A stretch of 64,000 bases of DNA from Oscillospiraceae bacterium (GTDB lineage Bacteria > Bacillota > Clostridia > Oscillospirales > CAG-272): assembly GCA_015063645.1 (NCBI GenBank), contig SVTS01000001.1, positions 23,578 through 87,577 on the forward strand, read 5' to 3'. Below, in pieces: positions 18,870-41,196 of this stretch. Under the pieces are notes generated by a model. It did no database searches, was not told where the DNA came from, and saw only the letters and a list, made by a program, of their open reading frames with translations. Both the position numbers and the translations under genes were made by a program. Positions within the stretch are counted from its first letter, which is position 1. The number at the start of each line of letters is the position of its first letter.

Positions 18870-19820
18870 TTATGTTTCATTTTTTCTTTCATCTGCCAGG
18901 TACCGTGTAATGCGCTGGCGGTAGGCGGACGGAGATTCTCCTGTGATTTTGGAAAATGCCCGGGAGAAATAGTGCGGATCGTCAAAGCCCACTGCCGCGC
19001 AGACATTTTTCAGAGACATATCCGGTGCATTCAGCATAATTTCCCGTGCGCGGTTGATACGGAATTCTATGATATACTGTGCGGGCGTTTTATCGAATTC
19101 GCTCCGGAAGAGGCGGATCAACTGGGATTTTGACAGATTGCTCACGCGGCACAACTCGTCAAGGGCGATCCGACGGGCATAATTCTGCCGCACATACCAG
19201 ACTGCTTTTTTCAGCGCGGCCGGGACACGGCGAAACTCCGTATAAGTTTCCCGATCGCGCAGCATACGGCAGCTTGCACGGGAGACGATCGAAAGGATCT
19301 GGCAGAAATACAGCATCAGCGGCAAAGCGTTATCCGCGCTGAGTCCGTTCAGCAAAGTCTCCATGCTGGCAGCCACATTACGCAGTTCCCCATTCGTATC
19401 TGTATAAAGCGGCATCAGGTACAGAGGATTTACGGAAAACAGAGAATCCGTTCTGTTCTTCATCAGCGCCGCTTCCGTCTCAGCACGCAGGCGGCTCACT
19501 TCATGTTCTGCTTCTTCAATTTCCAGTTCTCTGATTTTTTCCGATGGAGTGAAATGGATATACATCATTTTGCACATTCCGTCTCCTGCCGGAAAACGGC
19601 GGTAGGATTGCGCTGCCGGAATGAGCAAAGCACTTCCCGGGCTCAGTTCATACTGTTCAGAACCCATTTCCACGGAGCATTCTCCCTCCAGGACTACAAG
19701 GAGAATGGTATACGGATCCGCCACCTGCCAGACAGTACGGCGGACGACGATATACGCTTCCTCAATCTGCGGGAGTGTTTTTATAGAAAAACTGCTGATC
19801 ATTACACGCCTCCATGACAA
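18870..19820 (-). CDS. AraC family transcriptional regulator, divergent from GRE operon
   Basis: 316 aa. N-terminal cupin-like part and C-terminal AraC HTH (ELCRVSNLSKSQLIRLF..., GFDDPHYFSRAFSKITGESP). Confidence 0.85.
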   Translation of the reverse strand: MSWRRVMISSFSIKTLPQIEEAYIVVRRTVWQVADPYTILLVVLEGECSVEMGSEQYELSPGSALLIPAAQSYRRFPAGDGMCKMMYIHFTPSEKIRELEIEEAEHEVSRLRAETEAALMKNRTDSLFSVNPLYLMPLYTDTNGELRNVAASMETLLNGLSADNALPLMLYFCQILSIVSRASCRMLRDRETYTEFRRVPAALKKAVWYVRQNYARRIALDELCRVSNLSKSQLIRLFRSEFDKTPAQYIIEFRINRAREIMLNAPDMSLKNVCAAVGFDDPHYFSRAFSKITGESPSAYRQRITRYLADERKNET

Positions 19821-19980: not shown

Positions 19981-21102
19981 ATGAGCAAACTGAGAGTCGC
20001 CGTTATCGGCACAGGTATGATTGCCAACAGTGCACATTTCCCGATTCTGAACATTCTGCGCGAGGAGGGACTTGTTGAAGTTATCGGCGTTGCCGATATT
20101 CGTCCAGAAGCTGCGGCAGAGACCGCCAAGCGCCATGCTGTTCCCAACTGGTATACGGATCCGCAGAAAATGCTGGATGAGCTGCACCCTGATTTTGTTG
20201 CGGTCTGTACGCCGAACATGTATCACAAAGAATGGACGATCAAGGCACTCCGTGCCGGCGCCCATGTTGCCTGCGAAAAGCCTCTGGCACTGACCGTTGC
20301 CGATGCTGCTGAAATGTGGCAGACCGCACGCGACTGCGGAAAGATGCTCTTCCCCTGCCAGTGCATGCGCTGGCGCAACTACATGCAGCAGTCCAAGATT
20401 CTGGTGGACAGCGGTGAGCTTGGTGACGTATATTTCTCTGACATCGCTTTTGTCCGCCGCATAGGCGTTCCTACGTGGGGCATGTTCCACATGAAAGAGC
20501 ACAACTACGGCGGTCCTTTCTGCGATCTGGGTGTTCATCTGATCGATTCTCTGCTCTGGATCGTCGGTGACAAAAAAGTGGAAGCTGTTTCAGGCAGCAC
20601 CTACACGAAGATAGCCAATCAGGGTGAGGACATTCTTCTCAGCATTGCGGAAAGCGGCGCCTACAGCGGCACTTTCACGCCCCGTCCGTACGATTACCGC
20701 GAATTCAACGTGGAGGATTTTTCCACCGGCTTCATGCGCCTTGAAGGCGGCATGAGTGTCAACTTCAAGTTCTCCTGGGCAATCAATCTGCCTACGACCA
20801 ATCTGGACATGGTGATCTGCGGTGACAAGGGTGGTCTGTCTGTAAACGGCGAAACGCTGTACAAGAATATCGGACGTTATCAGACAGAATGCCGGATGAA
20901 ATGGTTTGACAACGGTCAGTACAAAGGCGTTCCCTTTGAGCAGCACCGTTACATGTACCGTCATATTCTTGACGTTCTCGCGGGACGCGATGAATATCTG
21001 ATCCGCGAAGCACAGAATATGGAAGTTACCAAGGCAATTGAATGCTTCTACCGCTCTGCTGAGCTTGGACGCGAAGTCCGTGCCTCCGAGCTGAAAGGAT
21101 AA
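19981..21102 (+). CDS. Gfo/Idh/MocA family NAD(P)-dependent oxidoreductase
   Basis: 373 aa. Rossmann start KLRVAVIGTGMIANSAH and family EKP motif (ACEKPLALT). AAGGAG RBS. Confidence 0.85.
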   Translation: MSKLRVAVIGTGMIANSAHFPILNILREEGLVEVIGVADIRPEAAAETAKRHAVPNWYTDPQKMLDELHPDFVAVCTPNMYHKEWTIKALRAGAHVACEKPLALTVADAAEMWQTARDCGKMLFPCQCMRWRNYMQQSKILVDSGELGDVYFSDIAFVRRIGVPTWGMFHMKEHNYGGPFCDLGVHLIDSLLWIVGDKKVEAVSGSTYTKIANQGEDILLSIAESGAYSGTFTPRPYDYREFNVEDFSTGFMRLEGGMSVNFKFSWAINLPTTNLDMVICGDKGGLSVNGETLYKNIGRYQTECRMKWFDNGQYKGVPFEQHRYMYRHILDVLAGRDEYLIREAQNMEVTKAIECFYRSAELGREVRASELKG

Positions 21103-21110
21103 GGTGGATT

Positions 21111-22205
21111 ATGATTAAAGCTGTTATAATCGGATTCTCCCACATGCATGTGAATGAGATCGCGCAGTACATCAGCGAGCAGCCCGATTTTACTCTGTCG
21201 GCAATCGCTGAGGTCGCCGGAAGCGGTGAGGGGATTCCTCCGCTCCGCTACACGCCTGCATGGAATCTGGCAAATGTAAAAGAAAAATACTGCCGGAACG
21301 AATATGCGGATTACCGCGAGATGCTGGATCGCGAGAAGCCGGACATCGCATTCATTCTGACGGAAAACTGCCAGAAGCCCGATGTTGTGGAAGAATGTGC
21401 GAAGCGCGGTGTCAACGTCTGCATTGAAAAGCCGATGGCTGTTTCCTATGCGGAAGCGAAACGGATTGAAGCCGCTGTAAAGGCACACGGCATCACTGCC
21501 GTTGTGAACTGGCCGGTAATCTGGCGTCCGTATCTGCACAAGCTCTGTGCCGCTGTAGAAAGCGGTATCGTGGGCAAGCCGATCAAGATGCGGTACATAA
21601 ACGGTCACACCGGACCTCTTGGCAAGGGTGCCCGCCACCGCGGCGTTGCTGAAAGCGCGGAGGAAATGACGGATGAGATTCGGGGACGCACCTGGTGGCA
21701 CAATGCCTCCCACGGCGGCGGCGTATTCCTCGACATCAGCTGTTACGGCTGTCTGTTCACGCAGTGGCTCATGGGGGACGGTGCGGAAAGTGTACTGGCA
21801 TATGGCGCTGATCTGAACACTCCCTTCGGTGACACGGCAGACAATGCCGCTGCTATTGTCCGTTTTGCGGATAAGATGTCCGTTATCGAAGGAACCTGGA
21901 CTACGCCCCGCGCACTGATTCCCTCCGGTCCGATGGTCAACTGCACAGACGGTGTGGTCACCTGCACCGGCGGTGCAGAGGACACTCCCGACGTCAAAGC
22001 ATACGATATGTTCGGCAAGGAAGTTGCTCTGCCCGAATATCAGCCGCAGGACAGCATGCGCAACATGCCCTGGCATTGGGCTGCTCACGTACAGGAAGGC
22101 AAACCGTTTTGCCGTATGGTTACGCTGGAGGAGAATCTGCGCGTAATGGCGATTCTTGACGCTGTAATCCGTGCATCCGCCAGCGGAAAAGCAGAAAAAG
22201 TATGA
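21111..22205 (+). CDS. Gfo/Idh/MocA family oxidoreductase (divergent N-terminus)
   Basis: 364 aa. IKAVIIGFSHMH and CIEKPMAVS motifs. Starts 8 nt after the previous gene, with an AAGGTGG RBS. Confidence 0.8.
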   Translation: MIKAVIIGFSHMHVNEIAQYISEQPDFTLSAIAEVAGSGEGIPPLRYTPAWNLANVKEKYCRNEYADYREMLDREKPDIAFILTENCQKPDVVEECAKRGVNVCIEKPMAVSYAEAKRIEAAVKAHGITAVVNWPVIWRPYLHKLCAAVESGIVGKPIKMRYINGHTGPLGKGARHRGVAESAEEMTDEIRGRTWWHNASHGGGVFLDISCYGCLFTQWLMGDGAESVLAYGADLNTPFGDTADNAAAIVRFADKMSVIEGTWTTPRALIPSGPMVNCTDGVVTCTGGAEDTPDVKAYDMFGKEVALPEYQPQDSMRNMPWHWAAHVQEGKPFCRMVTLEENLRVMAILDAVIRASASGKAEKV

Positions 22206-22966
22206 CGGGAATTATTGCGGATATTCAGCGTGCATCCGTCCATGACGGTCCCGGACTGCGCACGACGGTGTTTTTCAAAGGCTGTCCTCTGCGCTGCAGT
22301 TGGTGCCACAATCCGGAATGCATCTCCCCGAAGCCTCAGACACTGTTTTATCCGGACAAATGCATTCACTGCGGCGGATGTGCACAGGGATGCTTTTCCG
22401 GGGCACGTGTTCTCTGCGGGAAGATCATGGACACAGATACGGTTCTCGGCGAGATTCTCGCGGACAAAGATTACTATGGGACGGAAGGCGGTGTTACGTT
22501 CTCCGGCGGCGAACCGCTTCTGCAGGCGGATTTCCTGGCAGAGCTGACTGACGCATGTATTGCCTCCGGAATCCGGTGTGCGATGGAAACGTCGCTCTGG
22601 TTCTTCCGGGAGGATATTTTCACCCGCATGCAGCTTATAATGGCGGATCTGAAAATCTGGGACGGCGAAACCCATCGCCGATACACGGGTGTGTCCAATG
22701 AGCGCATCAGGGAGAATTTCCGTCGTTTGAATGAGCTTGGTATTCCGATTATTGCCCGTACGCCGGTGATTCCGGAGATCAGCCAGGGAATTCCGGAGAT
22801 TTCAGAATTTCTCAGAGGACTTGAGAACGTGAAAAAGTATGAGCTTCTTCCCTATCATCCGCTGGGCAATGCAAAGCTGACGGCACTGGGAATGGGATCT
22901 CCCTCTTTCACCGTACCGGATAAGGAACTTATGAAGGAGTTAAATCAACATGTATTCATACGCTGA
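22202..22966 (+). CDS. Glycyl-radical enzyme activating protein (radical SAM)
   Basis: 254 aa. SVHDGPGLRTTVFFKGCPLRCSWCHNPE (CX3CX2C) and GGVTFSGGEPLLQ. One extra Cys cluster, CIHCGGCAQGC. Its start overlaps the upstream stop (ATGA). Confidence 0.9.
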   Translation: MTGIIADIQRASVHDGPGLRTTVFFKGCPLRCSWCHNPECISPKPQTLFYPDKCIHCGGCAQGCFSGARVLCGKIMDTDTVLGEILADKDYYGTEGGVTFSGGEPLLQADFLAELTDACIASGIRCAMETSLWFFREDIFTRMQLIMADLKIWDGETHRRYTGVSNERIRENFRRLNELGIPIIARTPVIPEISQGIPEISEFLRGLENVKKYELLPYHPLGNAKLTALGMGSPSFTVPDKELMKELNQHVFIR

Positions 22967-25166
22967 CAGACTGCGCGCCATGCGTGAGACGAAGATCCGT
23001 CACACGCTGGAAAAGCGCAAGCAGAACGGATGCACGGATCTGGACGATTTCGGCACGGTGCCGCTCTCGCCCGGTTACTGTGTCATTCCGTGGTACAACA
23101 GTGAAAACGGCAGTTTTTACGGGCTGGACGGCATGGCGGAGAATTTTGTCCGCGTTATCGGTGCACATGAGCCGTATATTGACAAGAATGAAATGCTCTG
23201 CGGACGCTGGCGTGACATGCTGGTCAACTATCGCGGCGATCTGCATTACATGCCTGACTGGCTGAAGAATAATCTGAAGAATCTGGAATTTATCCAGAAA
23301 GGTGCCACCAATCAGTGGAGCAAGCGCTGGGACGAACAGCGTTTCCCCTACGATCATCTGAAGCCGTGGCATGTGAAATACAATATCACCAGCGGTATTG
23401 ACAGTGATGCGCATTTCGCATGCGATTACCGGATCGGTTTTGCGCTCGGCTTCGGCGGTATGCTGGAGAAGATCCGGAAGTACCGTGCGGTAAATCCCGA
23501 CAAAGCTGCTTTTTATGATGCAGAAGAACGCTGCGTCAACGCAATTGTGGACTTTATCCAGCGGCACATTGACCGACTTCACACTATGATCGCTGAGGAA
23601 ACAGACCCCGCTGTTCGCGAAAATCTGAAAACAATGTGCGAGACCTGCGAAAATGTAAAACTCGGGGCTCCGGGCACTTTCCGGGAAGTCTGCCAGTGGA
23701 CTGCATTCTTCAACTGTGCTGCACGCATTTACACCCGTGACGGTGCGGGATTCCAGCTGGATACGCTTCTGCTTCCCTATTATGAGAAAGATGTCAAAGA
23801 CGGAATTCTGGATGATGAAACGGCGAAATTCCTCATTGCCAATCTTCTGCTGATCGATCCGCATTACTATCAGATCTCCGGTGTGGATGAAAATGACCGT
23901 GATGTCACAAACCACCTCTCCTATCTGATTCTCGACGCGGCGGATTCCATCAACATCTCCTGCAATCTGACTGTACGCGTCCATGACAACTGCGATCCGG
24001 CGTTTATCCGCAAAGCGGTCTATTATCTGTTCAAGAACAAGAACGGCTGGCCCCGTTTTGCCAATGATGAAGCCCTCTGCAGCGGATACATGCGCACGGG
24101 TGCCGACAAAAAGACAGCCCGGGAGCGCATTGCCGTAGGCTGCCATTGGATGTGCGTACCGGGCCGGGAATTCCCCATGAACGACACGGTGAAAATCAAC
24201 GTTGCCAAGGTTCTGGAAGAAGCTCTGAAGGATATGCGCGGTGAAAGCGATAAATCCACAGAAAAGCTGTTTGCGCTTTACGAGGCGCATCTGACAAAAG
24301 CTGTGGAAATCACTGCGGCGGGCATCAATCATCATCTGGATCACATCGCGGATGTTACTCCGGAGCTGATTATGAATCTGATGATGCACGGGACTCTGGA
24401 AAAGGGAGAAGACATTTCCCGCTGTGCGGAGCTTTATACGGTCGGTATTGACGGCGCCGGTCTTGCGGTTGTTGCCGATTCATTCGGCGCACTGCAGGCG
24501 CGCATTGAAAATGAACATCTGCTGTCCTGGGAGGATATGTACGCCGCGCTGGACGATAATTTCGCCAATGAGCGTACGCGCGCTATGATGCAGTCTGCCC
24601 CCCGTTACTGCGGCGGAAACACTGTTTCGGATGCTTGGGCGAAGCGTCTGACCGAAAGCTGGGTACGCATTGTCCGCGCACAGGCGATGCCGGAGGGACG
24701 CCAGATGGTTCCCGGCTGGTTCAGCTGGTCCAGAACGATCGAATACGGTTCCAAGGTTGGTGCTACGCCCAACGGACGCCGTGCCGGTGAGCCGATCTCC
24801 CACGGTGCGAATCCGAATCCGCATTTCCGGCAGGATGGTGCTGTCACAGCGCTCGCCGGCGGTATTGCGGCAGTTCAGTGCGGCTGGGGCAACACGGCTC
24901 CGCTGCAGCTTGAGTTTGATCCCCAAATCACAGTAGAAGAAGGCGGCGTTGAGCGCGTCACGGAGCTGCTTCTCTCTCATTTCCGGCAGGGCGGAACGTT
25001 GATCAACATCAACATTCTGGATGGTGAAAAGCTGCTTGCGGCGCACAGGGATCCCGATCTGTATCCGGATCTGGTAGTCCGCGTTACGGGATTCACGGCA
25101 TATTTCGCCAGCCTTTCCCCCGCATTCCGTCAACTGGTTGTCAACCGTTTTCTGGAAGGAATCTGA
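22950..25166 (+). CDS. Glycyl radical enzyme (PFL-like fold), function unknown, non-canonical Cys loop
   Basis: 738 aa. C-terminal fingerprint VVRVTGFTAYF (Gly714 codon at 25089..25091). Cys loop AVGCHWMCVPG (Cys398 codon at 24141..24143). AAGGAG RBS, and a 17-nt overlap with the activase gene. Confidence 0.9.
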   Translation: MYSYADRLRAMRETKIRHTLEKRKQNGCTDLDDFGTVPLSPGYCVIPWYNSENGSFYGLDGMAENFVRVIGAHEPYIDKNEMLCGRWRDMLVNYRGDLHYMPDWLKNNLKNLEFIQKGATNQWSKRWDEQRFPYDHLKPWHVKYNITSGIDSDAHFACDYRIGFALGFGGMLEKIRKYRAVNPDKAAFYDAEERCVNAIVDFIQRHIDRLHTMIAEETDPAVRENLKTMCETCENVKLGAPGTFREVCQWTAFFNCAARIYTRDGAGFQLDTLLLPYYEKDVKDGILDDETAKFLIANLLLIDPHYYQISGVDENDRDVTNHLSYLILDAADSINISCNLTVRVHDNCDPAFIRKAVYYLFKNKNGWPRFANDEALCSGYMRTGADKKTARERIAVGCHWMCVPGREFPMNDTVKINVAKVLEEALKDMRGESDKSTEKLFALYEAHLTKAVEITAAGINHHLDHIADVTPELIMNLMMHGTLEKGEDISRCAELYTVGIDGAGLAVVADSFGALQARIENEHLLSWEDMYAALDDNFANERTRAMMQSAPRYCGGNTVSDAWAKRLTESWVRIVRAQAMPEGRQMVPGWFSWSRTIEYGSKVGATPNGRRAGEPISHGANPNPHFRQDGAVTALAGGIAAVQCGWGNTAPLQLEFDPQITVEEGGVERVTELLLSHFRQGGTLININILDGEKLLAAHRDPDLYPDLVVRVTGFTAYFASLSPAFRQLVVNRFLEGI

Positions 25167-25217: not shown

Positions 25218-26036
25218 TTAAACATATCTGCCGTTTTCAAGGTCACGGATCACTTGGGCTATCGCATGTTCTTCATTACTTACGGTTACATAATCGGCTG
25301 CCTCACGGGCTTCAGGACATGCATTGGCGACGGCTATACCGAGTCCGGCTGATTTAAACATGGAAATGTCGTTATTGTAATCGCCTATGGCGACGGTTTT
25401 ACTCATATCCACATGCAGATACTGTGCAAGTTTTTCGATTACCGTTCCTTTACCGATTCCTTTCGGCAGAATCTCAAACAGCGTTCTCTCAGAGCGGATA
25501 AAGTCAAACTGATCTGCCAGCGGATGTGCGCCCAGCGTCCGGGCAATCTCTCCGATCGTCTCCCCGCTTTCGCTTCCGAAGACAATTTTAGCAATCGGCT
25601 CTTTTACCTCGCGGTATGGACAGACGAGATTCGGCAGACGTGTCACTTCTCTGAAATGCTGCATGGTCTTATTTTCCCGACAGAAATATGTTTTATAAAA
25701 CGTATTGACCTGAATACCCACGTCGGAAAAAGCATCATCTATGCACTGTATCAGCTCTGTAACCGCCTCCGGCATGGTGCTTGTCCATATATATTTCTGA
25801 TTAGCATAGTCGTACAGACCGCCTCCGTTCACACATCCGATAGGCGCGTTCGGGTGTATTCTGTCATGAATCTTCGAGACAAAAAACGGCATACGTCCTG
25901 TAACGAATGTGAAATAACCGCCTTCGCTTTTGAAGTAGTCGATTGCGTACAGATTCTCGTCGGAAATGGTTTTATCTTTTCGCAGAAGCGTTCCGTCCAG
26001 ATCTGTGCAAAACAAAAAACCGTCAAAAATCCCCAT
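25218..26036 (-). CDS. Cof-type HAD-IIB family phosphatase
   Basis: 272 aa. Motif I FCTDLDGTLL and motif IV GDYNNDISMF. Overlaps the upstream AraC gene by 14 nt. Confidence 0.8.
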   Translation of the reverse strand: MGIFDGFLFCTDLDGTLLRKDKTISDENLYAIDYFKSEGGYFTFVTGRMPFFVSKIHDRIHPNAPIGCVNGGGLYDYANQKYIWTSTMPEAVTELIQCIDDAFSDVGIQVNTFYKTYFCRENKTMQHFREVTRLPNLVCPYREVKEPIAKIVFGSESGETIGEIARTLGAHPLADQFDFIRSERTLFEILPKGIGKGTVIEKLAQYLHVDMSKTVAIGDYNNDISMFKSAGLGIAVANACPEAREAADYVTVSNEEHAIAQVIRDLENGRYV

Positions 26037-27081: not shown

Positions 27082-28554
27082 ATGTATCTGAAAGACACAC
27101 ATAAAATATGGCTTGCCACCGGTGAAAACCGCGTTTATCTGGAACCGTCCATGGCAAACCGGCACGGACTTATTGCAGGAGCAACCGGTACAGGTAAGAC
27201 GGTCACACTGAAAGTATTGGCTGAATCATTCAGCGATATGGGTGTTCCGGTATTTATTGCCGACATCAAGGGCGATCTTTCCGGTATGTGCACACCCGGA
27301 AAGGAAAACAAACACATCCGCCGCAGTATCGACACGATGGGGCTTGACGGATTTGACTACTGCAAATATCCGGTACAGTTCTGGGATGTGTACGGCAAAC
27401 AGGGACTGCCTGTACGGACAACAATCTCCGAAATGGGCCCGGAGCTTCTGTCCCGGCTTCTGGGGCTGAATGATACGCAGAGCGGTATTATGCGTATTGT
27501 CTTCCGCATTGCGGACGACAAGGGGCTTCTGCTGATCGACCTGAAGGATCTTCGGTCCATGGTGCAGTATGTAGGCGATAATGCCAAGGAATACAAGCTG
27601 ACATACGGCAATATTGCGCCGCAGTCTGTCGGTGCGATCCAGCGTGCTCTTCTGGCACTTGAGGATGAGGGCGGCAATATCTTCTTCGGTGAGCCGTCTC
27701 TGGATCTGTCCGACTGGGTAGACTGGGATGCCGATGGACGCGGCATGATGAATATTCTGGAATGTGCTGAATTGTTCCAGCATCCGCTGCTTTACGGAAC
27801 GTTTCTTCTCTGGATGCTCTCAGAGCTGTATGACATGCTGCCTGAGGCAGGCGATCTGGATAAGCCGAAGCTTGCATTCTTCTTTGATGAAGCGCATCTT
27901 CTCTTTGACGATGCACCGAAGGCGTTGATTGAGAAAGTAGAACAGGTTGTGCGTCTGATCCGCTCCAAGGGTGTCAGCGTATGGTTCATCACGCAGAATC
28001 CCACCGATATTCCCGACAGTGTTCTGGGACAGATCGGCAACCGTGTACAGCATGCGCTGCGTGCCTACACCCCAAACGATCAGAAAGCGCTGAATGCGGC
28101 TGCACGCTCTTTCCGTGTGAATCCTGCGTTCAATACGGCGGATGCTATTCAGGCGCTTGGAGTCGGCGAAGCGCTGGTCTCCGTTCTGGACGGTGACGGT
28201 GTTCCATCCATCGTAGAACGAGCCAATATTCTGCCGCCGCGAAGCAGTATGTCTGCTGTGGATCCGGTTCTGCTGCAGAGTGTGGTTCTTGCCAGTTCCC
28301 TGCGTGACAAGTATTCCAGGGAAGAGGATCGTGAATCCGCTTACGAACAGCTGAGTGAGGAGCAGGAAAAGAAAGAGAAACAGGAAGAGCTTGACAAAGT
28401 AATCCGGGAAAAAGAAGCTGCTCAGAAGAAATCGTCGTCCACGCGCCGCAAATCCACCATACTGGAGAAGACCCTTTCCAGCACTGCCAACACCATCGGA
28501 CGGGAAATCGGCAAGAAGATTGTCCGCGGATTCTTTGATACATTTCTGAAATGA
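27082..28554 (+). CDS. HerA-like / DUF853 (YjgR-type) P-loop ATPase
   Basis: 490 aa. Walker A GATGTGKT, Walker B-like FFFDEAHLLF, and a lysine/glutamate-rich C-terminal tail. Confidence 0.7.
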   Translation: MYLKDTHKIWLATGENRVYLEPSMANRHGLIAGATGTGKTVTLKVLAESFSDMGVPVFIADIKGDLSGMCTPGKENKHIRRSIDTMGLDGFDYCKYPVQFWDVYGKQGLPVRTTISEMGPELLSRLLGLNDTQSGIMRIVFRIADDKGLLLIDLKDLRSMVQYVGDNAKEYKLTYGNIAPQSVGAIQRALLALEDEGGNIFFGEPSLDLSDWVDWDADGRGMMNILECAELFQHPLLYGTFLLWMLSELYDMLPEAGDLDKPKLAFFFDEAHLLFDDAPKALIEKVEQVVRLIRSKGVSVWFITQNPTDIPDSVLGQIGNRVQHALRAYTPNDQKALNAAARSFRVNPAFNTADAIQALGVGEALVSVLDGDGVPSIVERANILPPRSSMSAVDPVLLQSVVLASSLRDKYSREEDRESAYEQLSEEQEKKEKQEELDKVIREKEAAQKKSSSTRRKSTILEKTLSSTANTIGREIGKKIVRGFFDTFLK

Positions 28555-28604
28555 TCTTTTACGCAGGTGATATCAGGTGCCTGTCTCAGATTGAAGCTAA
28601 TATA

Positions 28605-28637
28605 AAAACGCACAGCTGTCGGAGCTGTGCGTTTTTT
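28605..28637. terminator. Rho-independent terminator between convergent genes
   Basis: aaaacgcacagct-gtcgg-agctgtgcgtttt stem followed by a T-run. Confidence 0.65.
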
Positions 28638-28640
28638 CTG

Positions 28641-29705
28641 TTATGCGTTACTCAATCCAAGTCCACGGAGATCTGCCAGTTTATTATTCTCCTCCGCATC
28701 ATACAGCGCCCAGATTACGCGCAGCCCCTGCAGGGCTGCTCTGCCGCTGGTGAGAGGTGTTTTATCCTGCAGAACGCATTCTACGAAGTGCTTTATCTCA
28801 TGCTGTGTTTCCTTGGATGTAGCGCCGTCCCGTTTCCAGACAACATTATAGGACTGCTTCTCCGTTGCACCGCCGGGTTTATGCTCACCGCTGCCGCTGT
28901 ACACACGGACTTCACCGGTATTATGCTCATATTCAAGCATGGCTTTTTCCGTCTGGATCTGGAAATCATAGGCAAGCCGGGTACCTCTTGCGCCCCAGGT
29001 TGCTCCGTGATAACCAACTGAGCCGTTGGCGAATTTGATTGTCACGGCACTGGTACCCTCGCGGAGCATCCACGGTGTACCGTTACGCGTTCCGAAATGC
29101 GCACCGTTTACGGGATCCCCCAGGAACCAGAGCATCAGATCGATATAGTGACAGCCATGGCTGAACAACTGTCCGCCGCCCAGTCTTCCGGTGAGAAGCC
29201 AGTTGGATTCCTTATCATCATATTGGAACTGTGCACCGGTAAGCTGTTCCGTCCATACGGACATCTGGATAATCTCCCCGTATTCACCGCTGTCCATAAG
29301 TTCTTTCAGTTTCTCAATGCCCTTCCAGAACCGCACGGGATAGGCGCACATGAGTTTCAGTTTACGGCTCTCGCAGGTTTCTATCAGACGCAGGCATTCC
29401 TCTTCTGTATTGCAGAGCGGTTTTTCCATGAGGATATGCTTATTGTGCATCGCAAAGAACATACCGCACTCAAAGTGCAGATCATGAGGCAACGCGATCA
29501 TAACAGCATCCACATAGTCTGTCATTTCGCGGAAATTGGTGAACACGGTGGGATTATTGCCCAACTCCTGTGCGACCCTGCGTGCTTTTTCTTCGATAAT
29601 ATCGCACACTGCCACAATTTCCACGTTATCTACATATTTGACGCCCTTCACGTGAGTTCCCATCATTTTGCCGCATCCAATAAGTCCAAGTCTGATAGTA
29701 TCCAT
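28641..29705 (-). CDS. Gfo/Idh/MocA family oxidoreductase
   Basis: 354 aa. IRLGLIGCGKMMGTH Rossmann start and LMEKPLCNT motif. Confidence 0.85.
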   Translation of the reverse strand: MDTIRLGLIGCGKMMGTHVKGVKYVDNVEIVAVCDIIEEKARRVAQELGNNPTVFTNFREMTDYVDAVMIALPHDLHFECGMFFAMHNKHILMEKPLCNTEEECLRLIETCESRKLKLMCAYPVRFWKGIEKLKELMDSGEYGEIIQMSVWTEQLTGAQFQYDDKESNWLLTGRLGGGQLFSHGCHYIDLMLWFLGDPVNGAHFGTRNGTPWMLREGTSAVTIKFANGSVGYHGATWGARGTRLAYDFQIQTEKAMLEYEHNTGEVRVYSGSGEHKPGGATEKQSYNVVWKRDGATSKETQHEIKHFVECVLQDKTPLTSGRAALQGLRVIWALYDAEENNKLADLRGLGLSNA

Positions 29706-29755
29706 ACTGTATCCTTTCCGCTGCGCTGCAGCTGAACGGCAGTGATCTGCTGTTC

Positions 29756-29784: not shown

Positions 29785-29919
29785 AATGCTGACTGCCAGC
29801 CGTCCGCATCACTGTCACTATTGTAGCACAGTCATGCGTCGGTGTCTATAGACAATCAGGCAAAAATTTGCACAATCGGGTTAAATTCATCGGATTTTAT
29901 GTGCAGGAGGCGGAAGAAG

Positions 29920-30762
29920 ATGTATATCAGCAGCGATTTTCCGGCAACTTTTACCGTTGAGGGAATCTTTTCCGTTCTGCTCCACACGTTCGACAGGCTT
30001 CCACGTTCAGGTGGGGAAGCCCACGATTTTCCCGAAATAATCTACATACTGCGCGGCAGGCATACTCTGTATGTGGACGGAAAGGAATACGCTCTGTCCG
30101 CGGGACAGATGATGATATATGCGCCCGGGGCGTTCCACGAGGGAAAAGACATCACCGGGGCTCAGGCTTATATTCTCAGCTTCAAAGTCGGGGCCGGCTT
30201 TCTTGATCCGCTGTACAATCGTGTGATCACACTGAACGAGGCACACAGGCAGCTGTTCTGCCGCATCATGGAGGACGGTCAGCGCTGTTTCATGCGCACT
30301 TCTCCGGGGCTTATGATCAGAGAAGGAACGGATACCTCCGTTCTGCAGAGGATGAAGAAACAGCTGGAATTTTTTCTCGCAGATATTCTTGTTGAATATG
30401 CAAGGCAGATAAACCGGGAGATTCCCGCCGGATGGGATGCTGATTTTGAAAAAGCTGTCCGATATCTGCATGAACATATCTGTCAGCCGCTCTCGCTGGA
30501 GGAGATTGCGTCAGGATGTTCCATGAGTGTTTCCAAGCTGAAAATGCTGTTCCGTGAGATGAGCGGATGCGGACCTGTCCATTACAGCAACGGACTGAAA
30601 ATTGAGTATGCAAAACAGCTCATTGCGGAAGGTGATTTGAATTTTACGGAGATTGCCGAAGCGCTTGGATTTTCCTCGCTGCATTATTTTTCCCGACTGT
30701 TCAGAAAGACAGCCGGAATATCCCCTTCAGAATATGCACGCACATGCCAGAGCAGTAAATAA
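29920..30762 (+). CDS. AraC family transcriptional regulator (cupin + HTH)
   Basis: Start moved to ATG 29920, with AGGAGG 9 nt upstream. C-terminal HTH (EIASGCSMSVSKLKMLF..., GFSSLHYFSRLFRKTAGISP). Confidence 0.85.
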   Translation: MYISSDFPATFTVEGIFSVLLHTFDRLPRSGGEAHDFPEIIYILRGRHTLYVDGKEYALSAGQMMIYAPGAFHEGKDITGAQAYILSFKVGAGFLDPLYNRVITLNEAHRQLFCRIMEDGQRCFMRTSPGLMIREGTDTSVLQRMKKQLEFFLADILVEYARQINREIPAGWDADFEKAVRYLHEHICQPLSLEEIASGCSMSVSKLKMLFREMSGCGPVHYSNGLKIEYAKQLIAEGDLNFTEIAEALGFSSLHYFSRLFRKTAGISPSEYARTCQSSK

Positions 30763-33523: not shown

Positions 33524-34645
33524 TCAGTATCTTCCGTAATTCTGGATTGCTGCCATAACGGTACGCATACTTGTCAGAAGCGAGCCGTTATTGATGGAAC
33601 CTGCGGTGCTCAGATTCAGACCGCGGGCATCGTTTTCCCGCGCCATTTCACAGTCGCGCTTTACTTCTGCGATAATATCTGCTTCGTTATTGCGCATGAA
33701 GGTGAACGGTGCCAGTTGTCCGTCAATACGTGTATGCGGCATATATTTCCGGATATGGGAAACGGTTACGGTTGGACCGAAATTGCAGCCTGTCAGATGC
33801 AGGCGGGCAAGGATCGGCACAAGGTGACCCATCGCAGAATCGGAATGCTGGAAACGGTTATCATCCGGATTCGGAGAAACACGCTCAAAGACGGATTTCA
33901 GAATGGGATAGCCGAACGCTTCATACATTTCGGGAGTCATCAGGTTGCTGTCATCGTCATAAAAACTGAATCCGTGGGAGAAATTCTCTTCACTATGCCC
34001 GGATTCCTCGATGAAGATACTGATGTATTCATGCACAACGCGAAGGATCGTCTCGGAGAAACGACGGAAAAGATCAGGATTATCATAGTAAAGGAACAGA
34101 AGATTTTCGGTACCGTATACAGAGGATGCCAGTGTTACGGGACCGCGGATACTTTTGAATTGCCCGGGACGTTTTCCATACTTCTCATAGAGACGCTTCT
34201 TTTCAGACTCCCAGTTAGCAGGCAGAATGAAGGAGCGCAGATCCAAATGATCGATCTCATCCAGTTTCTTTGCGAGGGATTCTTCATCGGTAAGCGTTCC
34301 CTTCAGCCATGTTGTCTTTCCGTCAAACACATACTGACCGCCGAAAACTTCGCCGATCTGGCGGAACGCCGGGAAAAAGCTGTCTGCGGGAGCAGGAGGA
34401 TTTTCACGCAGGAGTTTGCGTCCCACTATCTTCAGCGCTTTTTCGTTGTAACGCTTATTCAGCTCCAGTCTGCGCTCGGGCGGTGTATAGCCCCATGGTT
34501 CGCCCTCTTCTCCAAGTTCGGCGAAGACGCATTCATCACTCATACGGATGCCCAGCGCGACCTGCGGGGCCTCTTTGGAAAAACAGTTTTCCCTATGTGC
34601 CAGTTCATCATCTTTCCAGAACTGTTCGATATCCAGATCCAGCAT
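33524..34645 (-). CDS. Cytoplasmic protein of unknown function (373 aa)
   Basis: Uninterrupted ORF apparently co-transcribed with the 900-aa gene. No reliable motif recognised. Confidence 0.6.
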   Translation of the reverse strand: MLDLDIEQFWKDDELAHRENCFSKEAPQVALGIRMSDECVFAELGEEGEPWGYTPPERRLELNKRYNEKALKIVGRKLLRENPPAPADSFFPAFRQIGEVFGGQYVFDGKTTWLKGTLTDEESLAKKLDEIDHLDLRSFILPANWESEKKRLYEKYGKRPGQFKSIRGPVTLASSVYGTENLLFLYYDNPDLFRRFSETILRVVHEYISIFIEESGHSEENFSHGFSFYDDDSNLMTPEMYEAFGYPILKSVFERVSPNPDDNRFQHSDSAMGHLVPILARLHLTGCNFGPTVTVSHIRKYMPHTRIDGQLAPFTFMRNNEADIIAEVKRDCEMARENDARGLNLSTAGSINNGSLLTSMRTVMAAIQNYGRY

Positions 34646-36146: not shown

Positions 36147-36657
36147 GGTGTCTCTCCTTTTTCAGATTTATCGGTGTCGACTTCAAGAATTTACGAGCAC
36201 GCTCACACCGTTTTCTTACAAGATCTTCGCTGATCTTCAGTACGGCTGCTGTTTCCCTGATATTTAGCCCGTCAAGAAACAGACACCGCATAACGGAGGC
36301 GTACTTGGGTGGAAGATCAGATATCAAGGACAACGGCAGGTTCACAAGTGTTTCTTCTTCCGATATAATCGTATTTTCGATAGCTTCATCCATCTCCACA
36401 CAGTGCTCCCGCTGCTTCTTTTGTCGGCGATATATATCCAGAGCAGTACTGTTTACTGTTTTGTAGACATATCTCCGAACTGCAGCAGAATTGGGATCCA
36501 CAATCTTTTTTCGATTTCGTATCAACCTCAGAAATGCTTCATGTACTGCATCTTCCGCAAGATATTCGTCATGCAATATCTTGTATGCTTCGAAATACAT
36601 CGGCTGTTCGTAAAGCCTGTACAGCACGTCAATTATATCCTCGTTTGTATATGGCAT
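36136..36657 (-). CDS. Sigma-70 family (ECF-like) RNA polymerase sigma factor
   Basis: Start set at ATG 36657 (AAGGAG 6 nt upstream) rather than 36750. Region 2-like AEDAVHEAFLRL and region 4 HTH ETAAVLKISEDLVRKRCERARKFL. Confidence 0.75.
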   Translation of the reverse strand: MPYTNEDIIDVLYRLYEQPMYFEAYKILHDEYLAEDAVHEAFLRLIRNRKKIVDPNSAAVRRYVYKTVNSTALDIYRRQKKQREHCVEMDEAIENTIISEEETLVNLPLSLISDLPPKYASVMRCLFLDGLNIRETAAVLKISEDLVRKRCERARKFLKSTPINLKKERHHER

Positions 36658-36767
36658 ACTATACTCCTTTCCCTGTTTTTTCGTCCGGACATTAACCATA
36701 ACGATAAAATAGGTGGATTTGTGACAAAGCCGCAAGAGTTTTTTCCGCATATTCTTTTGGGTATATT

Positions 36768-36837: not shown

Positions 36838-39024
36838 TTACAATTCAATTTCAGTACGGGCGATAATATTATCCTGCAGTCCTTCTGAAAGGGCTGTGAA
36901 ATAATCGCTGTAGCCGCCTACGCGGACGATGAGATTTCCGTGGTTTTCCGGATGGATTTTTGCATCGAGAAGTTCTTCATGGGAGATCGCGTTGATCGAA
37001 AGCTGCTGACCGCCGCCGGCAAAATAGGTTTTTGCCAATGCGATAAATGCCTGCTGACCGCGCTCTGTACCGAGAATGCTCTTTGAGAACTTCATCTGCA
37101 TGACGTTGCCGCTCTTGGCAAGCGACTGATCTGCGATAAGCACGGAATTGAGCAGAGCTGTAGGACCGTTTTTGTCACAGCCGGGTACTGCACCGATACT
37201 GTCAGCGAGGAGAGATTCGCCTCTCTTTTTTCCGTTGGGCAATGCGCCGATCGCTCCGCCGTATGTGGCAGCGCGGGAGAAGGTACTGCATCCACCGCCG
37301 AACTGACCACCGCGATACGGATGCTTGGTCAGCAGATATCCGTAGAAATGATCGGTGACATTCCGGTAGATTTCATCCACATAGGCACAGTCGTTGCCGA
37401 ATTTATCAAAACTCCTGAAGTCGCGGTACATCCCGTCCCAGCCCTCGAAGTTATTATCCAGCGCATCCATCAGATCCGTCATGGAATATTTATGGGTATC
37501 AAAAACAAAATGACGTACTGCTGCCAGAGAGTCCACAGCATCTGCAAGTCCCTCTGCCAGAATCTGCGCACCGGCATACAGGGGACCGCGGTTTTTCATA
37601 TCAGCACCGCGCTCGATACATCCGAGGATCAGGTTGGAACGGTGGGGATTGGGGGCAATGCGGGACATGATCTCCTGAGTACGGCTTGCCACATCTGTAA
37701 CGGAATCAGTTACATATTCCACCTGCCGGCAATATGCTGCATAAAGGGCTTCATAATCCGCAAACTGTCTCGGATCTCCTGTATCAACGCCAACCTGTTT
37801 GCCACTAAGGGGACATTTACCGCGGTAGAGCGCCATCTCCAGACATTTGGCAAGGCACACTTCCCCGTCTTCCAGTCCCATATGGGATTTGCCGAAAATA
37901 TCGATCTGATTACAGCCGTTCATACAGTAATCGTGGGCATCTTCCGACGGGATCCCAAGTGCTTCCAGCGCGGGACAAACGCATTCGTCATTATACAGAG
38001 CGGGCATGCCGCATCCGGTTGCTATTGCCGCAGCAGCGCTTTTCCAGAGAGCCTCAGGCGTCCCTTTATGGACACGCATGGTTACGTTGGGAGCATCACA
38101 GGCGAATTCACGCACAAGATCCAATACTGCATAGGATACTTCATTGGTCTCGTCATTACCGGCTGCGTCGGAGCCGCTGATGCACAGATTCCACGCTCTT
38201 GTTTTCTTGAACAGATGCCACAGGGCACGCAGGCATTCGCGCCGGTCTTTTTCCTCGGATTTCCGCCAGTACGGGATCATAAACTGATCAAAACGTCCGG
38301 GTGAATCAATTCCGTCTGTACAGAATACAAGCCAGAACATCTGGCATGCTTCAAAGAAATCCTTCGGCGGATTCTGCGGAACACGGGTAAGGGCATCGGC
38401 AATACGTGCAAGACGTGCGCGGTCAGCATCACTCGTGCTCTTCTCCTCCATTTCGGCGGCAAGAGCCTGATAACGTGCAGCGATTGTATCTACGGCATCC
38501 AGCGCGAGCAGAAGTCCGTCGTAGAATACATCTTTTCCGTTATTGACCGTACGGTAATGTGCAATCTTTTTACGCAGACCGTCTGTTCCGTTTTCAAGGA
38601 GAATATCGTATCCTGGATTGGAATGTCCGCCGGTCCAGGCACGCAAGCCGCCTCCCCAACCTGCCTCACACCGGGAAATATTCCATTCTGCCTCGGTTAT
38701 ATGCTCACGCACAGAGGCAACTGTATCTATATTGGCACATTTATCCAGAATCTCTGCCAGTTCTTCGGCGTATTCCGGGTACTGTTCCATATTGCGGCGG
38801 AGTTTATCCTGCTTCACAACAATGCCAATACCGTATTCGAACTTTACGCCGCACGGGTCATTTTCATTGTACCAGCCGGCAAACATATGATCATCCGGGA
38901 TACTGATGGGCATATGCTGGGCGCGGCGGAGAAGTCCGGAAGCGATACGATAGCCAACATCGTCCTTTTCCGCTTCCAGATAGCCGACAGCAAAAGGTTC
39001 TATGGTATTCATATACTTTTTCAT
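36838..39024 (-). CDS. Glycyl radical enzyme (PFL-like fold), second divergent copy, function unknown
   Basis: 728 aa. C-terminal fingerprint LIVRVGGYSDYF (Gly704 codon at 36913..36915). Cys loop CMNGCNQIDIFGK (Cys371 codon at 37912..37914). AAAGGAG RBS. Confidence 0.9.
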   Translation of the reverse strand: MKKYMNTIEPFAVGYLEAEKDDVGYRIASGLLRRAQHMPISIPDDHMFAGWYNENDPCGVKFEYGIGIVVKQDKLRRNMEQYPEYAEELAEILDKCANIDTVASVREHITEAEWNISRCEAGWGGGLRAWTGGHSNPGYDILLENGTDGLRKKIAHYRTVNNGKDVFYDGLLLALDAVDTIAARYQALAAEMEEKSTSDADRARLARIADALTRVPQNPPKDFFEACQMFWLVFCTDGIDSPGRFDQFMIPYWRKSEEKDRRECLRALWHLFKKTRAWNLCISGSDAAGNDETNEVSYAVLDLVREFACDAPNVTMRVHKGTPEALWKSAAAAIATGCGMPALYNDECVCPALEALGIPSEDAHDYCMNGCNQIDIFGKSHMGLEDGEVCLAKCLEMALYRGKCPLSGKQVGVDTGDPRQFADYEALYAAYCRQVEYVTDSVTDVASRTQEIMSRIAPNPHRSNLILGCIERGADMKNRGPLYAGAQILAEGLADAVDSLAAVRHFVFDTHKYSMTDLMDALDNNFEGWDGMYRDFRSFDKFGNDCAYVDEIYRNVTDHFYGYLLTKHPYRGGQFGGGCSTFSRAATYGGAIGALPNGKKRGESLLADSIGAVPGCDKNGPTALLNSVLIADQSLAKSGNVMQMKFSKSILGTERGQQAFIALAKTYFAGGGQQLSINAISHEELLDAKIHPENHGNLIVRVGGYSDYFTALSEGLQDNIIARTEIEL

Positions 39025-39211: not shown

Positions 39212-40222
39212 TTATTCGGCTGCAGCCTGGATGGTAAGGACTTCGCGGGAAGTACGGATCACTTCTGCCGTATCGATAAGCAGATCGGTTTCGCCGTTGA
39301 TCTCACGGACAAATTCCCCGAGACCGGTGACATTATAGGATTTCAGTTCTACGGGAGCAAATCCGCTGCTGCCCTCAAGGGCAACCTGAAGAAGGACTGC
39401 CGTATCGGAATCGATACCTGCCTTGCCGGCACCTTTCATCTTATATTCAGCAACGCCCTTGGTACCCCAGAAGGTCATACGCCAATAGGTTTCCAGGGAG
39501 AATCCGCAGCTGGCGGGAGCAGCATAGGAAACGTCAGCTGTAAAGCCTGCACCGTTCTCCAATTCTGCCATAAACTGTCCGCAGTCACGGAAATCCGGTT
39601 CTTCCTTGGCAAAGTGGTTCCATGTACGGGCTGCGGTTACGTTTTTCACGCCCATACCGGTAACAAAACGGACAAGATCCACGCCGTGGATTGCGATATC
39701 ATTGATCGTGCCGCCGTGCTTGCCTTCTTCAAAATACCACATGGGGCGGGAGCCGTACTGCAGGGGATGCTGTGCGGTCATATTGATACAGCCGATTTCA
39801 CCAAGCATACCGTCGGCGATCATCTCGCGGAGGTTACGGATACCTGCGGAGAAGCGCAGCGTCAGATAGCAGCCGACTTTGAGATTCTTCTCTTTTGCCA
39901 GCTTCTCGATCTCATCAATTTCGGCAAGGGATGTGCAGACAGGCTTATCCGCATACACATGTTTGCCGGCACGCAGAGCGGCAATTGCCTCTCCGCCCCG
40001 CTCACCGAAGGAGCCGCCCAGGCAGATGGCATCTACTTTTTCATCTGCGAGAACGGATTCGAGCGTAGGATAATTGAATTCCAGTCCGAGACCGTCTGCC
40101 AGTGCCTTACCGTCATCGGTATCTTCCCATGCACCAAGAACGGTGATGTTGGGGTCTTTCATTGCTTCCTGATAAATTGCTCCGGTATGTCTGTGTTTGA
40201 AGCCGACAAATGCCAAATTCAT
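39212..40222 (-). CDS. Gfo/Idh/MocA family oxidoreductase
   Basis: 336 aa. MNLAFVGFKHRH start and YADKPVCTS (an EKP-motif variant). A TTGCAT-17-TATAAT promoter lies upstream. Confidence 0.8.
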   Translation of the reverse strand: MNLAFVGFKHRHTGAIYQEAMKDPNITVLGAWEDTDDGKALADGLGLEFNYPTLESVLADEKVDAICLGGSFGERGGEAIAALRAGKHVYADKPVCTSLAEIDEIEKLAKEKNLKVGCYLTLRFSAGIRNLREMIADGMLGEIGCINMTAQHPLQYGSRPMWYFEEGKHGGTINDIAIHGVDLVRFVTGMGVKNVTAARTWNHFAKEEPDFRDCGQFMAELENGAGFTADVSYAAPASCGFSLETYWRMTFWGTKGVAEYKMKGAGKAGIDSDTAVLLQVALEGSSGFAPVELKSYNVTGLGEFVREINGETDLLIDTAEVIRTSREVLTIQAAAE

Positions 40223-40341: not shown

Positions 40342-41196
40342 TCAGAATATATACATATATTTTTTCCGGTATTCTTTTGGGGTCATGCCTGTTCTCGCTT
40401 TGAACAGGCGACGCATTTGAGCGGAATCGGAAAAACCTGTTTTGTTGATGATTTCCTCAACGGTACTGTCCGTACTTCGCAGATATTCACATACTTTCCC
40501 GATTTTGATCGCGTTGATATACTGTTTGGGAGTCATTCCCTTCTGTTGAGTGAAAACACGGATCAGATGCTCCACGGACACATGACACTGCTCTGCAACA
40601 TCATTTACGGTCAGATACGGATTGAATGCATCCGCCTCTATGATCCCTATAGCTTCAAGCAGAAAGGACGGGGGTTTCTGCTGCACCATTTTACTTTGCT
40701 GTTCGCGACTCTCCGCATAGGCATGGATAAACATCCAGATCAGCGAGAGCGTGCGGCTTCTCATGTTCACCTTCCAACCGGGATCTTTCCGCATGAAGAT
40801 GCCATATGCCTCTTTTATTTTCCTTTCTGCCTCCGGGTAATCCTCCGGCGCTGCCAGAAGAGAGGTATTCAGGGAAAAATCCAGTGGAAGCGGATCCCGT
40901 GTGAAGAATCCAACAAGATAGTACCGAAATGGAAGCATGTCTGAGGTATGTTCAAAAAAATCATCCGTCAGTTTTTTCAGAACAAACGTGCCAGCGGGTG
41001 CTGTCAAGGGCTTGCAGTCCCGGAAATGGATGATAAAACTCCCCTCCGTCACCAGCATAAGCGTGTACTTATGCAATCCCTTCGGTAATTGTCCCTGCCG
41101 GGCAATTCCGCAATCCCATGGATACGCACGGTAAACCGTATGACATTTGGGTATATGTTCCAGAACAACATCCATTTCACTTAGCACTTTATCCAT
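40342..41196 (-). CDS. AraC family transcriptional regulator
   Basis: 284 aa. C-terminal HTH (DVAEQCHVSVEHLIRVF..., GFSDSAQMRRLFKARTGMTP). Confidence 0.85.
   Translation of the reverse strand: MDKVLSEMDVVLEHIPKCHTVYRAYPWDCGIARQGQLPKGLHKYTLMLVTEGSFIIHFRDCKPLTAPAGTFVLKKLTDDFFEHTSDMLPFRYYLVGFFTRDPLPLDFSLNTSLLAAPEDYPEAERKIKEAYGIFMRKDPGWKVNMRSRTLSLIWMFIHAYAESREQQSKMVQQKPPSFLLEAIGIIEADAFNPYLTVNDVAEQCHVSVEHLIRVFTQQKGMTPKQYINAIKIGKVCEYLRSTDSTVEEIINKTGFSDSAQMRRLFKARTGMTPKEYRKKYMYIF

Follow-up and report, generated by a model that had tools for sequence, protein, structure and literature searches.

Glycyl radical enzymes (GREs) drive health-relevant gut transformations involving trimethylamine, p-cresol, skatole and H2S precursors. 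Entire clades of these enzymes are still without a function (2026 review, PMC13450708). The stretch analyzed here, a 64-kb window of contig SVTS01000001.1 from an Oscillospiraceae bacterium (64,000 nucleotides, numbered from its first base), encodes two of them, GRE1 and GRE2, in which the residue two positions after the presumed catalytic Cys (Cys+2) is Trp and Gln, respectively. The question raised by this locus is whether two GREs with neither the adjacent Cys pair (CC) of pyruvate formate-lyase (PFL) nor the GCxE loop of the eliminases can be working enzymes, and what chemistry they might run. Judging from sequences and predicted folds, both genes most likely encode catalytically competent GREs from two separate uncharacterized clades, because the domains, the fingerprints and the position of the Cys are intact and a radical S-adenosylmethionine (SAM) activase encoded in the window scores above its NCBIfam cut-off.

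Position of the catalytic cysteine

A sequence-only reading of the window had reported the loop coordinates of GRE1 and, for both genes, Cys codons, loop residues and Cys-to-Gly distances, and all were correct on retranslation: positions 24129-24161 translate as IAVGCHWMCVP, and the Cys lies 316 residues from the radical Gly in GRE1 (G714) and 333 residues from it in GRE2 (G704). The catalytic Cys of both proteins is correctly identified on three independent grounds. In phmmer searches of all PDB chains, C398 of GRE1 paired with the Cys in VVGCVELSIPGR of PflD and in IIGCVEPQKPGK of glycerol dehydratase (GD), while C371 of GRE2 paired with the Cys of GCVE in CutC and HypD. A MAFFT alignment of the GRE1 and GRE2 families, E. 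coli PflD, YbiW and PflB, and the segments of GD, CutC and HypD taken from the phmmer alignments placed C398 and C371 in the catalytic Cys column and Trp400 and Gln373 in the Glu column; the Cys register proposed earlier was unchanged by this comparison with known GREs. In the AlphaFold2 models, both Cys residues form the tips of beta-hairpins (residues 394-402 of GRE1 and 366-376 of GRE2, the latter with strands 366-369 and 373-376). C398 is also the sole Cys that is invariant across the GRE1 clade, and C371, N372, Q373 and D375 are invariant in the GRE2 family alignment.

Other Cys residues were considered and rejected. C469 of GRE2, in the sequence GCIE, belongs to the motif C[ILM]E[KS]G, which canonical eliminases also carry at another place in the chain, and lies outside the finger loop, as does C492 of GRE1 (CAE), which is conserved in only 4 of 13 relatives. 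C402 of GRE1, a candidate for a PFL-like second Cys, is kept in only 3 of 13 proteins across the wider clade. The absence of GCxE or CC at the catalytic Cys, as first claimed, was upheld, since no alternative site of either kind survived the alignment and conservation checks.

Family membership

Both proteins have a PFL-like barrel and a C-terminal glycyl radical domain, with PF02901 and PF01228 above gathering scores. The AlphaFold2 models have a mean predicted local distance difference test score (pLDDT) of 92.3 for GRE1 and 94.9 for GRE2, with a predicted template modeling score of 0.93, and resemble solved GREs at template modeling (TM) scores of 0.8-0.85; in Foldseek comparisons, the GRE1 model gave TM 0.80-0.85 against propanediol dehydratase (PD), GD, PflD and CutC. 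Membership of the GRE superfamily is not matched by membership of any named family, as neither protein reached the cut-off of a model in NCBIfam (June 2026). The top NCBIfam score came from TIGR01774, at 266 bits for GRE1 and 377 bits for GRE2 against a cut-off of 678, while equivalog models (HypD, CutC, HpsG/HpfG and the PFL2-3 subfamily) gave 135-334 bits, with cut-offs of 1000 or more, and the PFL model TIGR01255 gave 62 and 72 bits against 994.

The residues that define the known classes give the same picture. The CC dipeptide that marks PFL is absent from both sequences, and the Glu column of the CXE motif of GRE 1,2-eliminases and isomerases is filled by W400 and Q373. The residue that stores the radical is Gly in both (G714 and G704), not the Ala, Ser or Thr of AAREs. 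X-succinate synthases are likewise a poor match, with Trp or Gln and not Ser at Cys+2, TutD and MasD among the weakest PDB matches, and carbohydrate-related neighbors; no small subunits of the benzylsuccinate synthase (BSS) type were recognizable among the neighboring genes, in an analysis that included no search aimed at them. The general-acid His that the dehydratases have on beta-strand 1, in contrast to these features, is present in both proteins, as H155 in GRE1 and H134 in GRE2. The radical-domain fingerprint RVxG[FWY]x6-8[FL]x4Qx2[IV]x2R, as quoted in PMC13450708, is complete in GRE2 (RVGGYSDYFTALSEGLQDNIIAR) and is complete in GRE1 (RVTGFTAYFASLSPAFRQLVVNR) save for an Arg at the Gln position (R727, 25128-25130). 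This Arg is also typical of the clade of GRE1, the segment reading FRQLVVNR as against xxQDDIIxR where the Gln is otherwise conserved.

Loss of the Cys+2 glutamate

CXE has been kept in all characterized C-O, C-N and C-S eliminases, and likewise in the new isomerases HplG, YbiW and PflD, and its Glu forms a hydrogen bond to the substrate (PMC13450708). Glu491 is essential in CutC (PMC13450708, June 2026 review), and CutC and HypD mutants in which the Glu is changed to Gln have no activity (PMC7079210; PMC13450708). Going by the alignments, the canonical Cys+2 glutamate base is out of reach for GRE1 and GRE2. We infer a different proton-handling arrangement because these mutants are inactive, and the earlier suggestion of different proton management was sound, the Cys+2 Glu being lost across large families. 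The division drawn alongside it, CC in PFL and GCxE in the others, stands only in part: the loss of CXE here is real, but PflB and BssA have Ser and PhdB has Gln at Cys+2 (PMC7079210). The Glu ascribed to arylacetate decarboxylases is not present in PhdB, in which the Gln of C482-x-Q484 is essential, the Q484E, Q484A and Q484L mutants being inactive (PMC7079210); CXQ is therefore not unprecedented. In the literature, we found no characterized GRE with CXW and nothing relevant linking GREs to GFO/IDH/MocA proteins, inosose or anhydroglucitol.

Conservation and distribution of the two clades

The Cys+2 substitutions are family hallmarks and not local decay, which is argued against by the strong conservation of the loop residues. 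The loop AVGC[N/H]W, with Trp at Cys+2, is present in all 120 of the 90%-identity clusters closest to GRE1 (76-100% identical). With each GTDB species represented by one genome, and with loop counts from the full-length proteins in the best 80 loci, a scan found at least 570 stretches or species genomes encoding a GRE1 relative, and GC[N/H]W was present in 68 of 68 full-length relatives (46 with Asn and 22 with His), accompanied by R[VI]TG[FY] at the glycine. These relatives are found in Clostridia, Planctomycetota, Verrucomicrobiota, Lentisphaeria, Kiritimatiellae, Chloroflexota, Latescibacterota, Spirochaetes and Bathyarchaeia and include one cultured isolate, the gut bacterium Enterocloster lavalensis KCTC 15153. 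The GRE2 family has the loop NGCNQ[I/V]DI[F/M/Y/Q/L]G, with GCNQ in at least 115 of 120 clusters and in 64 of 68 metagenome loci.

An exhaustive HMMER search of 1.84 billion cluster representatives showed that the CxW clade reaches proteins at 27-33% identity, whose loop is GC-x-W-x-x-[VI]-P-G, where x stands for N, H, Q, F, P or G. The Cys+2 residue of the 91 nearest full-length 50%-identity representatives is Glu in 56 cases, Trp in 25 and Gln in 5, the remaining 5 having Gly, Asp or His. Thr occupies the position before the radical Gly in 22 of 24 scored Trp-bearing representatives versus 6 of 56 Glu-bearing ones, a covariation that points to a remodeled active site, since the Cys loop and the Gly loop come together there.

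Some members of these collections are of interest in their own right. Four Bathyarchaeia metagenome-assembled genomes (MAGs) encode GC[N/H]W enzymes (loci L048, L049, L050 and L062), with an adjoining activase in L048, L050 and L062; none of the archaeal PFL-like GREs has a characterized function (2026 review, PMC13450708). Cluster representative P0187 (1098 aa) is a fusion of a GRE2-family protein with a PF14307 (WbsX-like) domain, and P0246 (1052 aa) is a GCNW-type GRE with a large N-terminal extension, its homologous part starting at about residue 402. Further non-canonical loops, namely GCVG, GCWE, GCVQ, GCQH, GCQD, GCWQ and GCTGP (GCGP in one of two alignments), occur in eight uncharacterized GRE clusters (P0312, P0329, P0332, P0366, P0373, P0375, P0379 and P0389).

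Two separate losses

In a neighbor-joining tree rooted on PflB, with 60 bootstrap replicates, the CxW proteins formed one clade outside the entire CXE radiation, and the CNQ clade was nested among CXE proteins, beside HypD. Each was monophyletic in 60 of 60 replicates and the two were joined in none. As the tree places them, the Glu losses of GRE1 and GRE2 are two separate phenomena, with CNQ having arisen within the CXE radiation and CxW being a deep lineage. In phmmer comparisons, GRE2 scored ~294 bits against CutC and HypD and 145 bits against GRE1, and these scores, together with the bootstraps, led us to reject the two as sister paralogues with one shared Glu loss.

Both proteins had also been described as short, with the deficit N-terminal to the Cys loop. 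This shortness is real and mostly N-terminal and comes from common deletions of ~20 residues (GD 318-338) and of 3 residues in the loop at GD H281-S282. It is separable from the loss of Glu, because many equally short GREs keep GCVE; the Glu is present in 27 of 56 short representatives, which rules out shortness as a cause or a marker of the loss.

Active site and comparison with known enzymes

The B12-independent glycerol and 1,2-propanediol dehydratases (1R8W and 5I2G) share the fold of GRE1 and GRE2 (TM 0.82-0.85) and have their Cys at the same loop tip but are only 18-23% identical to them and have Glu where these have Trp or Gln. In GD, H164 protonates the leaving group and D447 binds glycerol. 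The equivalents of both residues are kept in GRE1 and GRE2 (Table 1), and the activase is of a similar type. D412 is invariant in the GRE1 family alignment and is retained in the distant GCxW members listed. The E385-D386-G-E388 cluster is invariant in the GRE2 family alignment, with E385 in the D447 column. D375, at Cys+4 of GRE2, lies on the strand of Q373 in the predicted hairpin and should face the same way, because it is two residues further along that strand. In HypD, D278 can act as base from outside the Cys loop. Small residues (R-x-G-A-G-x-Q-L-D) take the place of the GD H281-S282 strand in the GRE1 clade, and alignment places the aromatic residues W400, Y306 and F591 around the site of GRE1, an arrangement consistent with a larger, ring-shaped substrate. 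In a further difference from the dehydratases, microcompartment shell genes were absent among the window open reading frames (ORFs) that were scanned.

The best sequence match of GRE1 among solved structures is PflD (8yjo, 183.7 bits). PflD and YbiW isomerize 1,5-anhydrohexitol-6-phosphate by ring opening ('anhydroglycolysis'; PMC13450708), acting on a six-membered sugar ring, and provide a precedent for GRE chemistry on sugars. The flanks of E. coli ybiW, a Cof phosphatase gene (ybiV) and the FSA aldolase gene fsaA, are echoed by the HAD gene after GRE1 and by a TAL_FSA gene before one GRE2 relative. Unlike GRE1 and GRE2, PflD and YbiW keep CXE, with Glu433 and Glu443 deprotonating the C2-OH (PMC13450708). 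They are linked to phosphotransferase system genes, whereas the GREs here are linked to GFO/IDH/MocA (GFO) oxidoreductases, and in the tree they fall inside the CXE radiation, apart from the CxW clade.

HypD and CutC are the best PDB matches of GRE2, but both retain CXE at the position where GRE2 has Gln. GRE2 is ~60-120 residues shorter than either and scores 323-334 bits against their models, for which the cut-offs are 1050-1100.

Genomic context

Glycosidases, AraC regulators and sugar enzymes are abundant in the window. An operon that starts with two GFO genes and the activase gene ends with GRE1 (Table 1). The best matches of the first, canonical GFO protein, all weak and below cut-off, are inositol 2-dehydrogenase, levoglucosan dehydrogenase and UDP-GlcNAc 3-dehydrogenase. 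The activase carries the motif CPLRCSWC and one CxxCxxCxxxC auxiliary motif. No second activase-like ORF was found in the window, and this single enzyme probably serves both GREs in this genome.

Table 1. Coordinates of the two GRE genes, their active-site residues and their neighbors (window positions)
Feature	Position	Strand	Basis or remark
GRE1, 738 aa, GC[N/H]W / RVTG[F/Y] clade	22950..25166	+	PF02901 (5.7e-90) and PF01228
GRE1 H155, equivalent to GD H164 (general acid)	23412..23414	+	MAFFT column; 16/16 in family
GRE1 finger loop I394-AVG-C398-H399-W400-M-C402-V-P404	24129..24161	+	Cys codon 24141-24143 (TGC), Trp codon 24147-24149
GRE1 D412, equivalent to GD D447; candidate substrate-binding or base carboxylate	24183..24185	+	MAFFT
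GRE1 G714, radical glycine in RVTGF	25089..25091	+	Fingerprint
GRE2, 728 aa, NGCNQ[I/V]D / RVGG[Y/F] clade	36838..39024	-	PF02901 (1.1e-115) and PF01228
GRE2 H134, equivalent to GD H164	38623..38625	-	MAFFT column; invariant
GRE2 finger loop C367-MNG-C371-N372-Q373-I-D375-IFG378	37891..37926	-	Cys codon 37912-37914 (TGT), Gln 37906-37908, Asp 37900-37902
GRE2 acidic cluster E385-D386-G-E388, strand after Cys loop; candidate relocated bases	37861..37872	-	Alignment
GRE2 G704, radical glycine in RVGGY	36913..36915	-	Fingerprint
AraC-family regulator, divergent, of GRE1 operon	18870..19820	-	Arrangement recurs in related loci
Canonical GFO/IDH/MocA oxidoreductase (IGTGMIAN), first gene of GRE1 operon	19981..21102	+	Pfam, sequence
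GFO/IDH/MocA-like protein, degenerate dinucleotide loop IIGFSHMH, directly upstream of activase	21111..22205	+	Pfam, sequence
Radical-SAM GRE activating enzyme, 254 aa, overlaps GRE1 start	22202..22966	+	TIGR02494, 251 bits (cut-off 174)
Cof-type HAD sugar phosphatase downstream of GRE1	25218..26036	-	Membership of the system putative
GFO/IDH/MocA-like protein, degenerate loop VGFKHRH, directly upstream of GRE2	39212..40222	-	Sequence
AraC-family regulator upstream of GFO-GRE2 pair	40342..41196	-	ORF annotation

The core of this operon, an AraC regulator gene, two to five GFO genes, an activase gene and GRE1, recurs in 16 Clostridia species loci. Clostridia operons are often expanded, with four or five GFO genes, xylose-isomerase-like TIM barrels and an FAD oxidoreductase, and have alpha-galactosidases nearby. 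An activase adjoins the GRE1-type gene in most related loci. A degenerate GFO with the loop IIG[FA][AS]HMH adjoins the activase and GRE1 pair in the close family, with the degenerate proteins noted in loci L015-L031, L032, L037 and L094, and this degenerate type stands beside a GRE in one Burkholderiales, one Planctomycetales and one Poribacteria MAG. The degenerate loops, G-F-S-H-M-H on the GRE1 side and G-F-K-H-R-H on the GRE2 side, replace GxGxxG/A, and the two degenerate proteins in the window are only 19% identical to each other. The pairing of a degenerate with a canonical GFO in the GRE1 family suggests, at the level of sequence, a heteromeric or non-redox partner. Near GRE1 relatives of distant phyla, GFO genes were the commonest neighbors (7 of 120), followed by LacI/GntR regulators, URO-D-like proteins, TIM barrels, GH38 and ROK; the Enterocloster lavalensis locus was uninformative, with only a ROK protein near the GRE.

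A second, different GRE (GCVE, GCGE, DGCANP or PFL) adjoins the GC[N/H]W enzyme in loci L026, L028, L041, L069 and L111, and the L111 locus has enzymes of the GRE1 and GRE2 types ~4 kb apart. A fourth GFO-like ORF of the window (354 aa; 28641-29705, minus strand) adjoins an AraC gene at 29842-30762; the ORFs over it on the opposite strand (28551-29021 and 29097-29735) lack any Pfam match and are likely to be spurious.

Around GRE2 relatives, an activase usually adjoins the GRE gene (~30 loci), and the other neighbors vary, with aldo-keto reductases, short-chain dehydrogenases, FSA-type and KDPG-type aldolases and glycosidase-type genes (GH39, GH88-like, GH36, GH3 and sialidase-like). Counting of neighbor families around these relatives gave no constant partner beyond the activase. 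Directly downstream of GRE2 and on the same strand are an ECF-type sigma factor gene (36136-36750), a gene overlapping it (34803-36146) for a 447-aa protein that has no Pfam match and is possibly an anti-sigma factor, and a gene for a 900-aa protein with no Pfam match (30803-33505). A URO-D/MtaA-like gene (33524-34645, minus strand) is also found downstream of GRE2. The URO-D family is also found near 4 of 120 distant GRE1 relatives.

Elsewhere in the window, a HerA-like ATPase (27082-28554, plus strand; PF05872, E 1.6e-205) lies between the two sugar loci with no obvious connection to them, and two adjacent proteins of ~787 aa are encoded at 54945-57308 and 57364-59724 (plus strand), the first with a BspA-type leucine-rich repeat and the second with no Pfam match.

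Proposed reaction and alternatives

The reading that we tentatively prefer, while stopping short of calling it probable, is that both proteins are active radical C-O lyases or isomerases of sugar-derived substrates, assisted by the dehydratase His, with a relocated base and with the Cys+2 residue re-used for binding. The activase would install the radical on Gly714 or Gly704, from which a thiyl radical would form on Cys398 or Cys371. The substrate may be supplied or consumed by neighboring NAD-dependent enzymes of the GFO, aldo-keto-reductase or short-chain-dehydrogenase type. Cleavage of a C-O bond beta to the radical would lead to dehydration or to ring-opening isomerization, and the leaving group would be protonated by the His. 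D412 in GRE1 and D375, E385 or E388 in GRE2 may have taken over as base from the Cys+2 Glu, while the Cys+2 side chain would take part in binding, Trp400 as a stacking platform for a six-membered ring and Gln373 as a hydrogen-bond partner.

Several points weigh against this proposal. We know of no GRE that runs this C-O chemistry without the Cys+2 Glu. That Glu is the base in every characterized C-O, C-N and C-S lyase and isomerase (PMC13450708). A substitute base at Cys+1 is made doubtful by the alternation of Asn and His there in the GRE1 clade; His399 is unlikely as the relocated base, the position being Asn in 46 of 68 species. By neighbor-family count, only the activase is a constant companion of the GRE1 clade outside gut Clostridia, and no activase adjoins GRE2 in this window.

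The main rival, which we consider unlikely though deserving of serious attention, is that one or both GREs run a reaction that can do without a base on the Cys loop and that is neither 1,2-elimination nor isomerization. Such a reaction would be of a class new to GREs, and the idea applies above all to the deep CxW clade. A keto-cyclitol or keto-sugar produced by a GFO enzyme could undergo radical C-C ring cleavage; radical epimerization and C-C bond formation resembling hydroalkylation are the other candidates. A new class would fit the placement of the CxW clade beyond the CXE radiation as a whole, the RVTG signature that this clade has in its Gly loop, the Arg at the fingerprint Gln position and the PFL-like motifs of GRE1 (GANPNPH...DGAVTA, compared with GANPMHGRDQKGAVAS in PflB). 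The known Glu-less classes, PFL, BSS and PhdB, all do C-C chemistry (PMC7079210), and aromatic residues (W400, F591 and Y306) appear to be abundant in the predicted GRE1 pocket. However, the dehydratase His and the Asp after the loop are retained and invariant, there is neither a PFL-like second Cys nor a recognizable small subunit of the BSS type among the neighbors, and the context is one of carbohydrates and not of hydrocarbons or aromatic acids. The earlier judgment that the chemistry is probably different from that of characterized GREs is possible, but a relocated base with eliminase-like C-O chemistry fits at least equally well.

An improbable alternative, for GRE2 only, is a PhdB-like decarboxylase of a sugar acid or an arylacetate, in which Gln373 would have the same non-acid-base role as Q484. 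PhdB is the only characterized GRE to share the Cys+2 Gln of GRE2, and this essential residue is evidently not an acid-base catalyst (PMC7079210). Some GRE2 relatives also lie near uronate-related genes (KDPG-type aldolase, GH88-like and heparinase II/III). PhdB itself acts on an arylacetate, has H327, W495 and Y691 and, at 95.6 kDa, is larger than GRE2 (PMC7079210), which stands in a carbohydrate context and, when compared by published residue positions and not by alignment, has L384 at Cys+13 in place of W495. GRE2 scores 334, 323 and 377 bits with the HypD, CutC and dehydratase models versus 252 and 177 bits with decarboxylase models, nests beside HypD in the tree and keeps the dehydratase His, and the acid-rich region around its loop (D375, E385, D386 and E388) would be unfavorable for an anionic substrate. 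That both proteins are dead, or mere radical-storage or regulatory paralogues after loss of the base, is hardly credible: changing the Glu to Gln or Ala does abolish the activity of CutC and HypD, but here the replacement residues are invariant over very large and old clades, Cys, Gly and fingerprint are intact, a dedicated activase is co-encoded, and close homologues 76-81% identical across many clusters indicate strong purifying selection.

Implications

Both clades are large, sequence-defined leads for new anaerobic sugar chemistry, although not a categorically new system, and the motif pair GCxW and RVTG[F/Y] can be used for annotating Trp-clade enzymes. A more speculative proposal, which we regard as rather unlikely, would make the GC[N/H]W / RVTG clade the sixth or seventh functional class among GREs, one that works with a pair of canonical and degenerate GFO/IDH/MocA proteins in a radical step new to GREs. 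Its candidate steps, put forward with similar reserve, would be C-C ring opening, dehydroxylation or epimerization of a keto-cyclitol or of a keto- or anhydro-sugar. If the Trp clade does transform a sugar or cyclitol with GFO partners, a new pathway for carbohydrates in anaerobes would be added, and the finding would also show that proton transfer in GREs can be managed without the CXE glutamate. If such a new class is real, it would imply a widespread oxygen-independent catabolism of cyclitols or unusual sugars in anaerobes of gut, rumen and sediment, Bathyarchaeia among them.

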